Source of the DNA: Deltaproteobacteria bacterium
GTDB taxonomy: Bacteria > Desulfobacterota > Syntrophia > Syntrophales > UBA2210
Direction of reading: 5' to 3'
Assembly (NCBI GenBank): GCA_016933215.1
Contig: JAFGBH010000096.1
Span: forward strand, 17,788 to 81,787
Length of the DNA stretch: 64,000 nucleotides
The notes beneath the pieces were generated by a model. That model made no database searches. It was not told where the DNA came from and saw only the letters and a list, made by a program, of their open reading frames with translations. Shown here one piece after another: positions 20,882 to 33,323 of the stretch. Position numbers and translations under genes: made by a program. How positions within the stretch are numbered: the stretch's first letter is position 1; each line of letters starts with the position of its first letter.

Positions 20882-20984
20882 GTTAGAGACACTGTTACCT
20901 CCTTTTGTAACAGCTGTCGATTCTACTATAATTCGTTTTACGGTCCCGGGCTATACAGCGTCGTAGCTCGGGACCACTTTTTTT
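20882..20984 (+). ncRNA. Putative small RNA, copy 1 (promoter-hairpin-terminator unit)
   Basis: Upstream are TTGACA (20849-20854) and an extended -10 TGgTTTAAT (20867-20875). Hairpin CTGTTAC/GTAACAG (20892-20913) has CCTCCTTTT in its loop. The terminator is GGTCCCGGGCT/AGCTCGGGACC (20942-20975) plus T7. A paralogue lies at 33219-33323. Confidence 0.4.
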
Positions 20985-21018
20985 ACACGACGTCTATATG
21001 GATACGGGTGGCATATAG

Positions 21019-21102
21019 ATGGATTTAATCATTGCATTCATCGGTCTGGTCGTAATCATATTTTTAGTATGCTGGACAATCAGTGAGATCTTCTTTAAAT
21101 AG
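21019..21102 (+). CDS. Candidate 27-aa hydrophobic peptide (MDLIIAFIGLVVIIFLVCWTISEIFFK)
   Basis: An ATG with GGGTGG 7 nt upstream. It is a single predicted TM helix with a charged tail, too short for the ORF track, and has no supporting homology. Confidence 0.25.
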   Translation: MDLIIAFIGLVVIIFLVCWTISEIFFK

Positions 21103-21340
21103 GGCTACATCTGAAAGTTCAAGATCGATTGTTCATCCATTAATGATGGCTTAGTTTTATACATTGCTTTTTCTGTACAATATTCCTTGTCATCACTGAG
21201 TAAAATTTTAGAAGGATGAATTCATCCTGGTTGCTCATTCCAGGGTGCTTGACATTTACGTTCCGATATAACAGATTATTTTCTGCTGTTGTAGCTTCTT
21301 GCTTGAAGCAATTTATTTTAAAACAGACTGAGGCAGATGT

Positions 21341-22279
21341 ATGAAAACAATTGTTACGCTGACGATGAACCCCGCCATTGATAAAAGCTCGAAGGTTGAC
21401 CATGTCATCGCGGAACGCAAACTGTACTGCCAAACTCCCTGTTTTGAACCGGGAGGCGGGGGAATCAATGTCACGAGAGCGATCAAAAAACTGGGGGGAG
21501 AATCTATCGCATTCTATCTCTCGGGAGGCCCGACAGGCGAAATGCTCCAATACCTGTTCAAGCAGGAGAACCTTGATCATCGCCCGATCCTGTTTGACGG
21601 ATGGACAAGGGAGAATCTGATTGTACTGGAAGAGTCCACGGGTCAGCAATACCGCTTTGGAATGCCCGGCCCACCCATATCCGAGCCGGAGTGGCAGCAA
21701 TGCCTGCACGAACTGTCTGCCTTTGGTCACAGGATTGACTTCATCGTCGCCAGCGGCAGCCTTCCGCAAGGAGTTCCGGACTCTTTTTACGCCAGCGTTG
21801 CCCGTATCGGAAAAAGCAGGGGTGCCCGGGTTATCGTGGATGCCTCGGGAGAAGCGCTTCGTCTCGCGCTGAACGAAGGTGTCTATCTGATCAAACCCAA
21901 TATCCGCGAGTTCAGAGAACTCAGTGGCGCCGGATTGGAGGACAATCTGGAGATAGAACATATGGCAATGGATATTGCCCGCAAGGGGAAATGCGGCGTG
22001 GTGGTTGTTTCACTCGGAGCCGCCGGTGTCCTGATGGCATCTGACGATGGCCATGAATATATCCAGCCGCCGCCCGTCCCGATCATAAGCAAGGTAGGCG
22101 CCGGAGACAGCATGGTGGCCGGTATTGTGCTGAGTTTGGCACGCGGCAATCCTCCGCGTGATGCCGTCAGATTCGGTGTGGCAGCTGGCACCGCGGCCGT
22201 CATGACATCCGGAACGGAACTGTGTCGGAGAGAAGACACCGAACGTCTGTACAGACAATTGACCCTGAAATCAGCATGA
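21341..22279 (+). CDS. PfkB-family carbohydrate kinase (1-phosphofructokinase / 6-phosphofructokinase II / tagatose-6-P kinase subfamily)
   Basis: 312 aa. It has MKTIVTLTMNPAIDK, GGGGINV and the C-terminal pfkB signature KVGAGDSMVAG. Confidence 0.85.
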   Translation: MKTIVTLTMNPAIDKSSKVDHVIAERKLYCQTPCFEPGGGGINVTRAIKKLGGESIAFYLSGGPTGEMLQYLFKQENLDHRPILFDGWTRENLIVLEESTGQQYRFGMPGPPISEPEWQQCLHELSAFGHRIDFIVASGSLPQGVPDSFYASVARIGKSRGARVIVDASGEALRLALNEGVYLIKPNIREFRELSGAGLEDNLEIEHMAMDIARKGKCGVVVVSLGAAGVLMASDDGHEYIQPPPVPIISKVGAGDSMVAGIVLSLARGNPPRDAVRFGVAAGTAAVMTSGTELCRREDTERLYRQLTLKSA

Positions 22280-22909
22280 GAGCGGAATGTCCTTCAGGAT
22301 TTGCTTACTGAGACAGGCGAAGTAACTTTTGTGAAAATTGCAGAGCTCAAAGTAAAATCACCTTATGAAAGATACGCAACCCAAGAAAAAGAAAAGAGTC
22401 AGGTATCCGATACCGGAAGAGGGGCCGTACCTTCCGAAGGAAAAGTACAGACAATCTTCCCCGAAATCATATCCGGTATTACAGGAGCGTATCGAACTGG
22501 TACGCTGACAGTCACATTGCTATCGCAAATTATAATCCTAAGTATGGTTTTTTCATCTGTTGAATTAGATGAGATAGCTACAATCAAATCTGACACTTGA
22601 CATATAGAGGTAGTAGCCATAGCCACCCTTCCGCCTGCTAATCTTTGGTATCGATTGAGCGCAAAAAGCCACCATTGCAACTACAAATCTTCAATGTTAA
22701 TCAGTGAAAAATACAAGTCCCAGCAATGATATTTTTGTAATATAATAAAATATTTGACTAATATCTTAATGAAGGATATTCTTCATCTTGGTTTTATTGA
22801 GAATTTGTTCTGTTTTAGCGTTATCGAGTTGACCTGAATTTTCAAAGTGAGGGAATTATGGTCAGACTATTGAAGCCCTGTTTCTCAAAAAGAGAGGCAG
22901 GGTTTTGTT

Positions 22910-23461
22910 TTGGATAGGTACAAAGGGCACTGCTCCACATTGTTTAAAAGCGTTTTTCGTTATGTTGCTCTCGATGTTGAGACAACGGGTCTGTCTCCCC
23001 GAAAAGGTCATAGGATAATCGAAGTAGGGGCAGTCGCCATTGAATATGGGAAACCAGTAGGAGAATTGTCGAGTCTTGTAAATTCCGGTAGAAAAATACC
23101 ATGTCAGACTGCGCGAATACACGGAATAACCGATGCAATGCTCACTAATCAGCCTTTGCCCGATGAAATAATGCCACGATTATGGGATTTCCTGAAGGAC
23201 AGTATTGTAATCGCCCATAATGCAAGGTTCGATGTTGAGTTTCTCAGACATGAATTTGGACTAATTTCATTACAGTTGGAGAATAAGGCTGTCTGTACAC
23301 TGGAAATGAGCAGAAAGCTCTATCCAGGGTTGCCCAATCACAGGCTCAATACCGTTTACAGATATTTGTTTGGAGAAAAGCCCGCGAATGTTCAAAGGCA
23401 TCGGGCGCTCGATGATGCGAAGATGACTGCCGCAATATGGCTTGAAATGGTTAAGCGATGA
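22910..23461 (+). CDS. DnaQ-like DEDDh 3'-5' exonuclease (DNA polymerase III epsilon-like), stand-alone, coupled to cas3
   Basis: 183 aa with a TTG start. The three motifs are ExoI ALDVETTGL, ExoII IAHNARFDVEFL and ExoIII HRALDDAKMTA. Its stop TGA overlaps the cas3 ATG (ATGA at 23458-23461). Confidence 0.8.
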   Translation: MDRYKGHCSTLFKSVFRYVALDVETTGLSPRKGHRIIEVGAVAIEYGKPVGELSSLVNSGRKIPCQTARIHGITDAMLTNQPLPDEIMPRLWDFLKDSIVIAHNARFDVEFLRHEFGLISLQLENKAVCTLEMSRKLYPGLPNHRLNTVYRYLFGEKPANVQRHRALDDAKMTAAIWLEMVKR

Positions 23462-31806: not shown

Positions 31807-32107
31807 AAATGCTCCGTCCCGACTGAGAGGCCGACTGGCTCTGTGGCTTCTGGAAGTGCGAGCCGGCGTCTATGTGGGGAAGGTGTCACGGCGTATTAGG
31901 GAGATGATATGGGAGAACGTTGAAGTCGGGATTAATAATGGAAATGCGGTTATGGCCTGGACGACCAATACAGAATCAGGGTTTGATTTTCTGACGCTCG
32001 GCTCGAATCGACGGATCCCAGTCGAAGTGGACGGAATAAAGCTGGTATCATTCCTGCCGGAAACAGATGATTCTGTATCGACCAAATCTAAGGAAAACGG
32101 TTCCTAA
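31787..32107 (+). CDS. cas2: Cas2, type I-E
   Basis: (M)[42 protein letters not shown] parallels E. coli Cas2. The ATG at 31787 lies 8 nt after AAGGAGGG, and the ORF-track start is GTG 31784. It overlaps the cas1 end. Confidence 0.93.
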
Positions 32108-32167
32108 AAAGTTGGTAGAAAGTATCGATCTTTGAAAACTTAATATTGCCGAATATATACGAGAAGT
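32108..32167 (+). promoter_or_regulatory. CRISPR leader (60-bp AT-rich spacer between cas2 stop and first repeat)
   Basis: The position and AT-richness are as in E. coli-type I-E loci. No motif could be verified. Confidence 0.55.
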
Positions 32168-32989
32168 ATGTTCCCCGCATACGCGGGGATGAACCGGTAT
32201 CCATCAGCGGCATTGGTATCTATAACAAATGTTCCCCGCATACGCGGGGATGAACCGAACCGAGAACCGACATAACCGTAACGTGGGAAATGTTCCCCGC
32301 ATACGCGGGGATGAACCGGCGATACTGGATGGCAGAAAGACCGTCACCCGATGTTCCCCGCATACGCGGGGATGAACCGATACACCAATTAAATAAGCCT
32401 TATTATAACTAATGTTCCCCGCATACGCGGGGATGAACCGCATTATTTTGTTATTAACCTCCAAAAAAGGGGATGTTCCCCGCATACGCGGGGATGAACC
32501 GTCCTGTAATATGTTGCTGTCTTTATAGAGGTCATGTTCCCCGCATACGCGGGGATGAACCGTAGCTCCCGCAAGTCTATCCTGGGCTATAGTAATGTTC
32601 CCCGCATACGCGGGGATGAACCGCTATTGGAATAGTTCGCCTTTTTATAGTTCATATGTTCCCCGCATACGCGGGGATGAACCGACATTTGATCTTGTCC
32701 TTCGGCTCGTACTCATATGTTCCCCGCATACGCGGGGATGAACCGCCTTTTAGCGCGTCCTTCAGGTGACGGTGAAAATGTTCCCCGCATACGCGGGGAT
32801 GAACCGTTCCCGAATTTCGTCTACTAAGTCAATCGGATATGTTCCCCGCATACGCGGGGATGAACCGGGAAAATACAATGTCTTAACTACTCTGAAGGCA
32901 TGTTCCCCGCATACGCGGGGATGAACCGCTACGGTAGACGAGTCGCCTGTGTCAACGGTAATGTTCCCCGCATACGCGGGGATGAACCG
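32168..32989 (+). CRISPR. Type I-E CRISPR array, 14 repeats / 13 spacers
   Basis: The 29-nt repeat ATGTTCCCCGCATACGCGGGGATGAACCG recurs at an exact 61-nt period (32168, 32229 ... 32961). All 14 copies are identical, and the spacers are all 32 nt. The repeat has the I-E stem CCCCGC/GCGGGG. Confidence 0.97.
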
Positions 32990-33184
32990 CCGGTCGTATA
33001 TCCTATATGCAACGTTGGCGGAGACTCTTGGCGATGAAAACTCGGTGGATGCAATATTAATATGACGGGCCTGGTATGATTTCTGTTATTGATTGCCACC
33101 TACAATCAATAAACGATTATTACTTCCAAGATTCATTTATTACAGGAAGAACTTGTCCTCTGTCGAATTATCAGGAGAGGTTTA

Positions 33185-33212
33185 TTGACACTCGTCACCA
33201 TGATGTTATAAT
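33185..33212 (+). promoter_or_regulatory. Near-consensus sigma70 promoter (TTGACA-N16-TGtTATAAT) driving sRNA-like copy 2
   Basis: TTGACA is at 33185-33190, the extended -10 TGT at 33204-33206 and TATAAT at 33207-33212. Confidence 0.5.
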
Positions 33213-33218
33213 TGCGAA

Positions 33219-33323
33219 GAATTGGGACCATGTCCCTCCTTTTGTATGCATCTCATGCTAATCTACAGTTATTCGCTTCACGGTCCCGGGCTATACAGCG
33301 TCGTAGCTCGGGACCACTTTTTT
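33219..33323 (+). ncRNA. Putative small RNA, copy 2
   Basis: Hairpin GGGAC-cat-GTCCC (33224-33236) is followed by the CCTCCTTTTGTA block (33235-33246). The terminator GGTCCCGGGCT/AGCTCGGGACC (33282-33315) plus T6 is identical to copy 1. Confidence 0.4.

Follow-up and report, generated by a model that had tools for sequence, protein, structure and literature searches.

Duplicated small RNA (sRNA) genes that share their ends and have diverged in their middles are represented by OmrA and OmrB of Escherichia coli and by the Qrr and PrrF paralogs. Direct repeats can have another origin in Campbell-type integration, in which a single homologous crossover inserts DNA and the segment shared by the two partners ends up as a direct repeat on either side of it. 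Small integrative, replicative islands and phage satellites, such as P4-like satellites with their defence hotspots, carry variable defence cargo. CRISPR-Cas on genomic islands is among the subjects of a study in Vibrio (PMC6360697). We analysed a stretch of 64,000 nucleotides (the window, to whose first letter all positions given here refer unless a contig is named) from a Deltaproteobacteria bacterium of the order Syntrophales (assembly GCA_016933215.1, contig JAFGBH010000096.1, positions 17,788 to 81,787), which holds a 20-kb island (13648-33676) integrated in the 3' end of a tRNA-Phe gene. The rightward-transcribed half of this island carries a complete type I-E CRISPR-Cas system and lies between two copies of a direct repeat. 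A preliminary description of the window had read these repeats as possible boundaries of a cassette nested inside the island. We find it rather probable that the repeat represents the 3' end common to two paralogous genes for small non-coding RNAs on the island, and the two copies are best read as happening to sit at the two margins of the cargo half, or as having been put there by recombination.

The two copies of the repeat are located as follows.
20922..20983, plus strand: direct repeat copy 1, consisting of the end of a linker, a 13-bp terminator hairpin (20942-20975) and a U-tract; identical core at 20940-20983
33262..33323, plus strand: direct repeat copy 2; identical core at 33280-33323, hairpin at 33282-33315
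The window contains two exact occurrences of the 44-nt core ACGGTCCCGGGCTATACAGCGTCGTAGCTCGGGACCACTTTTTT and no more, at these positions and both on the plus strand, with none expected by chance as judged from 100 dinucleotide-preserving shuffles. The match was extended by a repeat finder to 62 nt with 92% identity, the copies being in direct orientation with a start-to-start distance of 12,340 bp. A direct repeat of about 64 bp with a 44-nt identical core had been claimed in the preliminary description and is confirmed; the start given there for copy 1 (20925) is off by about 3 nt, which is immaterial. Beyond the 62 nt a fainter similarity continues, by way of a common CCTCCTTTTGTA block, up to a common TTGACA -35 box approximately 90 nt upstream. 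Across the whole genome (102 contigs, 2.69 Mb) the repeat hairpin was found at these two sites only, even when up to three mismatches were allowed, so that the only genomic copies are the two at the boundaries of the bracketed segment. A covariance model likewise found only these two. The objection foreseen in the preliminary description, that the repeat might be a terminator or repetitive extragenic palindromic (REP) sequence scattered throughout the genome, thus does not hold, and a dispersed element of this kind was rejected.

Each copy of the repeat forms the 3' end of a complete unit that consists of a sigma70-like promoter, a non-coding RNA of approximately 100-105 nt, and a terminator hairpin followed by a U-tract.
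20849..20984, plus strand: sRNA-like unit 1; -35 box TTGACA at 20849-20854, -10 box near 20873-20878, RNA roughly 20884-20984 (~100 nt)
33185..33324, plus strand: sRNA-like unit 2; TTGACA-16-TATAAT with an upstream TG, RNA roughly 33219-33324 (~105 nt)
In a promoter scan, the promoter of unit 1 (TTGACA-18-AATCAT) matched the consensus at 10 of 12 positions and that of unit 2 at all 12, and the distance of the promoter relative to the repeat is the same in both. Homology between the units begins at the -35 box and breaks off abruptly with the final T of the U-tract. Within this span the CCTCCTTTTGTA block is identical (12/12). The CCUCCUUUU block, which is anti-Shine-Dalgarno-like, is located in unit 1 in the loop of a 5' hairpin according to the predicted fold; unit 2 carries the CCUCCUUUUGUA block as unit 1 does, and the 5' hairpin and linker differ between the two. 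The fold of unit 1 has a free energy of -38.3 kcal/mol (z = -6.7 against shuffled sequences) and that of unit 2 has z = -4.0; the respective covariance-model matches are 120.5 and 129.5 bits. An intrinsic terminator is present in both units, on the plus strand at 20942-20975 and 33282-33315, with a 13-pair stem (8 G-C), an 8-nt loop and then ACTTTTTT. The U-tract (T6-7) is found on the plus strand only, the minus-strand version having no T-run.

Reading of the three homologous units (these two and the one described below) gave no conserved open reading frame (ORF) on either strand, with neither start codons nor frames conserved, and no Rfam family matched either copy at E <= 1. Each unit thus has, at the level of its sequence, what characterizes an sRNA gene: its own promoter and terminator, a short transcript and no conserved ORF. 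The repeat is accordingly not a bare junction scar but the terminator of two paralogous units, the homology stopping exactly at the end of the U-tract. A minus-strand reading of the units, with AAAAGGAGG as a ribosome-binding site, was rejected; its frames are of 5 and about 32 codons and are unconserved, and the T-run is on the plus strand only. A CreTA-like or tracr-like RNA was also rejected, by inspection alone and with no alignment, the units bearing no resemblance to the CRISPR repeat.

Two further features were noted at the units. Inside the RNA of unit 1, at 20905-20932, lies a second promoter-like site, TTGTAA-16-TATAAT, that has no good equivalent in copy 2; transcripts from it would begin at the base of the terminator hairpin and run toward a small ORF and the pfkB gene. 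Upstream of the unit-2 promoter there is an inverted repeat.
33086..33112, plus strand: perfect 10-nt inverted repeat TTATTGATTG-N7-CAATCAATAA, approximately 75-100 nt upstream of the unit-2 promoter
An alignment found ATTGATTGCC to be common to this inverted repeat and the third homolog, at the same relative position, and a regulator of the RNA gene may thus use the inverted repeat as its operator.

A search of 338 genomes of the same order with a covariance model made from both copies identified one further member of the family (77 bits, E = 8e-11), in Syntrophaceae bacterium UBA3084 (DFBI01000179.1, 379-519 of the locus). The same locus is also present on a JGI metagenome contig (2663-2803). 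The UBA3084 unit has the same layout, with TTGACA, a -10 box, UUAGAGACA, CCUCCUUUU, a linker and the same hairpin stem, and its promoter elements are spaced alike. Each of the 13 stem pairs is preserved in all three sequences and 11 are invariant, but UBA3084 has a different loop. Directly before the UBA3084 unit lies a gene for a PEP-CTERM protein with its terminator, and directly after it an insertion sequence (N-terminus of an ISL3-like transposase). No Cse1 homolog was found in the UBA3084 assembly (89% complete), nor any island context at the locus, and the lack of Cse1 indicates that the RNA is not tied to cas. The unit is thus conserved independently of its flanking genes, although a single homolog gives this thin support. 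A model rebuilt with the new sequence recovered no further member among 401 genomes from across the phylum, BLAST gave none in 60 relatives, and IMG/VR, plasmids and phages contained no further RNA unit; exact-pattern searches of metagenome, genome and viral collections returned the UBA3084 locus only. In these comparisons the unit thus behaves like a non-coding gene that is rare and conserved in its own right, and not like the by-product of an insertion event.

A segment-wise comparison of copy 1, copy 2 and the UBA3084 homolog gave the following identities.
60 nt upstream of the -35 box: copy 1-UBA3084 58%; copy 2-UBA3084 66%; copy 1-copy 2 52%
-35 box to transcript start: copy 1-UBA3084 82%; copy 2-UBA3084 62%; copy 1-copy 2 65%
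RNA 5' end: copy 1-UBA3084 75%; copy 2-UBA3084 19%; copy 1-copy 2 25%
Linker: copy 1-UBA3084 52%; copy 2-UBA3084 79%; copy 1-copy 2 52%
Terminator region: copy 1-UBA3084 36/46; copy 2-UBA3084 36/46; copy 1-copy 2 44/44
Identity in the hairpin loop and U-tract is confined to the copy 1-copy 2 pair. Conservation of the stem extends to UBA3084, so that constraint can explain most of the 44-nt identity, and only the identity of loop and tail would call for a recent shared history of copies 1 and 2. The mosaic pattern hints at recombination among the three RNA genes. It appears compatible with gene conversion between the copies and would fit, in part, a single cargo-capturing crossover; with only three sequences compared, rate variation can mimic such a mosaic as well.

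Our preferred reading, two paralogous RNA genes, draws on the two complete units, their uniqueness in the genome, the conserved homolog in another Syntrophales family and the lack of a conserved ORF. According to this reading both units would be transcribed, gene 1 opening the rightward cargo half at its divergent junction with the leftward backbone, and gene 2 closing it just inside the right attachment site (attR). Each gene would comprise a sigma70-type promoter and an RNA of approximately 100-105 nt with a 5' hairpin, an exposed CCUCCUUUU that mimics an anti-Shine-Dalgarno sequence, an AU-rich linker and a strong terminator. From this architecture the RNAs may be predicted to act in trans, CCUCCUUUU pairing with ribosome-binding sites to repress translation, and the diverged flanks of the motif might set a different specificity for each RNA. 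The 44-nt identity would reflect strong conservation of the stem together with either common descent of the 3' ends or a recent gene conversion. That the copies bracket CRISPR-Cas would then follow from the positions of the two genes, with no dedicated recombination system having made a cassette boundary there.

The 44-bp tract common to both copies could, independently of its origin, support loss of the cargo. Perfect identity over 44 bp in direct orientation makes a plausible substrate for homologous deletion, and this length exceeds the minimum for RecA-dependent exchange in E. coli, which is roughly 25 bp. It is thus plausible on physical grounds that rare RecA-dependent deletion could remove the 12.3-kb block and leave one hybrid RNA gene. 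Such a deletion would be irreversible, a one-way loss and not the on/off mechanism that had been suggested for the defence cargo.

Several points weigh against our preferred reading. Duplex prediction against the island and against 2,716 sites genome-wide at which GGAGG is followed by a start codon yielded no outstanding target; the best site on the island, the ribosome-binding site of cas6e, ranks 70th for RNA 1 and 128th for RNA 2 among the 2,716, and CCUCCUUUU pairs with most strong ribosome-binding sites. A tblastn search with E. coli Hfq gave no match in the metagenome-assembled genome, and for this reason we make no claim of Hfq dependence. With only three members of the family known, compensatory covariation is lacking. 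An equally good role for unit 1 would be that of a 5' leader or attenuator of the small ORF and pfkB downstream of it. The position of the bracket at both ends of the cargo is striking, yet our reading treats it as incidental.

The segment between the copies has the content originally described for it: a hydrophobic ORF, pfkB, dnaQ, the cas operon and the array are all located between them.
21019..21102, plus strand: 27-codon hydrophobic ORF MDLIIAFIGLVVIIFLVCWTISEIFFK, 35 nt past the unit-1 terminator, as read from the sequence
21341..22279, plus strand: pfkB-family sugar kinase (Pfam PF00294, 1.2e-50)
22910..32107, plus strand: dnaQ-like exonuclease followed by type I-E cas3, cse1, cse2, cas7, cas5, cas6e, cas1 and cas2 (Pfam and gene calls; identical dnaQ-cas2 order in one relative)
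22910-23461, plus strand: dnaQ alone (Pfam)
23458-32107, plus strand: cas3 to cas2 (Pfam)
32168..32989, plus strand: type I-E CRISPR array of 14 identical repeats with a 61-nt period and 13 spacers
The two RNA units bracket the entire rightward half of the island, and the bracketed segment also includes part of the second unit itself, namely its promoter and 5' half (33185-33261). The product of the 27-codon ORF is a predicted single helix, and the ORF has GGGTGG as a ribosome-binding site. None of the 13 spacers of the array matched elsewhere in the source genome, and there is thus no self-targeting spacer. The last of the 14 CRISPR repeats is also identical to the others, with no degenerate terminal repeat, and the leader from cas2 to the first repeat measures only about 60 nt. 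A terminator-like hairpin with a T-run lies at 22871-22907, immediately upstream of the dnaQ start codon, where it overlaps a weak rnk_leader match (27.5 bits, E = 0.57); this hairpin may be an attenuator heading the cas operon.

The island around this segment has the following organization, its backbone genes having been assigned from ORFs, Pfam, and gene calls on a near-identical contig (JAFGUT010000034.1).
13572..13647, plus strand: tRNA-Phe (GAA), the integration target (ARAGORN; Rfam tRNA 70.8 bits)
13600..13687, plus strand: left attachment site (attL), an 88-nt direct repeat of the tRNA-Phe 3' half and downstream terminator, 97% identical to 33589-33676
13662..20677, minus strand: leftward backbone and accessory genes, namely integrase, HTH, HTH_17 xis-like, RepO with iterons, 379-aa protein, C39 peptidase, FGase-like and small protein
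33589..33676, plus strand: attR, the right end of the island, from the repeat match and from the right flank, which directly follows tRNA-Phe in a same-genus genome
By Pfam, the integrase is a tyrosine integrase and the initiator is of the RepO type. The int, HTH, RepO, C39 and FGase genes lie outside the bracketed segment and on the minus strand, which bears out the earlier placement of the int/rep backbone. A contig of a same-genus genome (1-9540) begins within tRNA-Phe and continues straight into the DNA right of attR, a glycosyltransferase cluster, with 90-92% identity. As judged from this alignment, that contig contains an empty attachment site and confirms the limits of the island, from which it follows that the whole island is a recent acquisition. 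A second assembly, GCA_016938315.1, contains a near-identical island on JAFGUT010000034.1 (99.98% over 17.8 kb) and represents the same population; its contig ends within cas6e (window position 30752), not at the repeat. On the minus strand at 18297-18364, just upstream of the 379-aa gene, there is a sub-threshold Rfam match to the int-alpA RNA (29.3 bits against a gathering threshold of 35.8, E = 0.018). The source genome also holds a second, partial RepO-like gene on another contig, at about 9800-11130.

A possible but unlikely alternative is Campbell-type homologous recombination between a single RNA gene on a simpler int/rep island and a homologous RNA gene on incoming DNA, circular or linear, that also carried the small ORF, pfkB, dnaQ-cas and the array. 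Two hybrid copies would have been left as direct repeats, so that duplication of the RNA gene would be the footprint of cargo capture. The mosaic, in which the left copy has the 5' part of ancestral type and the right copy the 3' part of that type, is what a single crossover predicts, and it is the only positive evidence for a nested cassette. The 60 nt upstream of the -35 box contradict a simple single crossover, however, in that copy 2 (66%) is closer there to UBA3084 than copy 1 is (58%), and lineage-specific differences in rate may imitate a mosaic among three sequences.

The cargo of such islands does turn over. Relatives of RepO and Int were sought in the 338 order-level genomes, in IMG/VR and in a collection of 5.8 billion proteins; the closest backbones (RepO 57-60%, Int 59-71% identity) have restriction-modification cargo of type III or type IIG, and neither the RNA unit nor cas genes were present in these relatives. 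In one of them, G008, two large minus-strand genes between rep and int were read as a type III restriction-modification pair, without a Pfam check; another has DUF4238 and an MmeI-like type IIG enzyme. The closest relatives of DnaQ (68-70% identity) head partial or complete cas loci, one of them running from dnaQ through cas2, in unrelated chromosomal neighbourhoods, and the cas genes thus look like exchangeable cargo in these comparisons. No adjacent pfkB and no repeats or RNA units were found at these related dnaQ-cas operons. Since they start at dnaQ, without pfkB or repeats, the 12.3-kb block is itself composite and not a recurring cassette.

Direct traces of a cassette were not recovered. 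The genome, metagenome, viral, plasmid and phage collections and the 5.8-billion-protein set yielded no single-copy island variant lacking cas, for the reason that they contained no close relative of the island. The simpler ancestral element of 7-8 kb that the preliminary description had envisaged was not seen; the only congener has an empty attB with no small island. Exact-protein look-ups of the flanks for alternative junctions returned the same population only, contigs of which occur in runs SRR13394436 and SRR13394437, and the Logan contigs end no more than about 110 nt from the flank gene, with no junction. Neither an integrase nor a transposase ORF was found in 20985-33261 by inspection of ORFs and Pfam. 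The compositional comparison that had been suggested for backbone and module revealed no break: their tetranucleotide L1 distance is 0.185, at least as large a difference being found in 27% of adjacent window pairs of the genome, which is within the difference between ordinary neighbouring segments, and the GC content is 0.451 for the backbone and 0.480 for the module, both halves being mildly atypical for the genome. Of the nested-cassette interpretation there remain the unique repeats, their bracketing of the rightward cargo half and the apparent exchangeability of the cas genes; a recurring cassette, a recombinase and a compositional break were not found. Had the repeats been cassette junctions, they would have shown a small integrative element capturing and shedding type I-E CRISPR-Cas in uncultured syntrophic anaerobes. 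As it is, the locus cautions that direct repeats flanking cargo can be paralogous genes and not insertion scars.

It is distinctly improbable that the units are cis-acting modules, with unit 1 serving as a promoter-proximal attenuator for the small ORF, pfkB and cas, and unit 2 as a terminator for the precursor CRISPR RNA that would shield the convergent int in the circular island. Unit 1 does immediately precede the rightward genes, and its promoter is the only strong one ahead of pfkB; attenuator-like elements do occur in the operon, as seen in the second hairpin and T-run before dnaQ (22871-22907). No terminator was found between the end of the array (32989) and unit 2, whose hairpin is the first after the array. 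Unit 2, however, has a perfect promoter of its own and nothing to regulate before attR, and a mere terminator would not need a conserved CCUCCUUUU block and linker. The UBA3084 homolog, situated after the PEP-CTERM gene and before the insertion sequence, shares no conserved downstream gene. A speculative reading, to which we give little credence, would make the twin RNA genes homology "bookends" of a cargo slot, such that related islands swap or shed defence modules by recombination within the RNA genes while the RNAs tune translation of island or host genes; the mosaic would be a trace of these exchanges. That the 27-aa hydrophobic peptide is a membrane toxin and the RNAs are type I antitoxins that stabilise the cargo is hardly credible: the hydrophobic ORF, of 27 codons for a single helix and with GGGTGG as its ribosome-binding site, does begin 35 nt after unit 1, but it shares the strand of the RNAs without overlapping them, neither RNA forms a strong duplex with the ORF mRNA among the top island-wide matches, no such ORF adjoins copy 2 or the UBA3084 homolog, and recombination between the repeats would remove the toxin gene along with the cargo, so that retention would not be enforced.

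The paralogous RNA genes that we favour can be set beside each of the described systems. The repeat resembles REP sequences, bacterial interspersed mosaic elements (BIMEs) and recycled terminators in being a GC-rich imperfect intergenic palindrome followed by a T-run. It differs from REP/BIME elements in that there are two copies in 2.69 Mb and that the element is always joined to the same upstream promoter, motif and linker. As in Campbell-type integration, homologous direct repeats surround foreign-looking cargo and the parts that match a third homolog differ between the left and the right copy; unlike in such integration, no precursor or cas-less variant was found in the collections searched, the mosaic is not that of one clean crossover and there is no compositional break. 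Like small integrative, replicative islands and phage satellites, the island has its tyrosine integrase next to a tRNA gene, encodes a RepO-type initiator with iterons and carries defence genes. Its cargo slot, unlike that of such elements, is bounded by twin RNA genes and not by conserved protein genes, and the position of the cargo relative to rep and int differs between this island and the G008 relative.

The comparison with OmrA/OmrB, Qrr and PrrF is one of differences in arrangement and likeness in design. The island copies are not adjacent but 12.3 kb apart, at the ends of the cargo half, and have no Rfam entry; their putative seed is the general, anti-Shine-Dalgarno-like CCUCCUUUU, no Hfq gene was detected in the genome, and the RNAs are predicted from sequence. 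They appear to represent an undescribed and rare sRNA-like family with three known members, two of them on a defence-carrying island, and so offer a small lead toward island-encoded regulatory RNAs in Syntrophales. As in the described families, there are two paralogous promoter-sRNA-terminator units in one genome, with motif and terminator near-identical and the presumed specificity segments diverged, and the parts of each RNA follow the usual order, in which a putative seed close to the 5' end precedes an AU-rich linker and then an intrinsic terminator.

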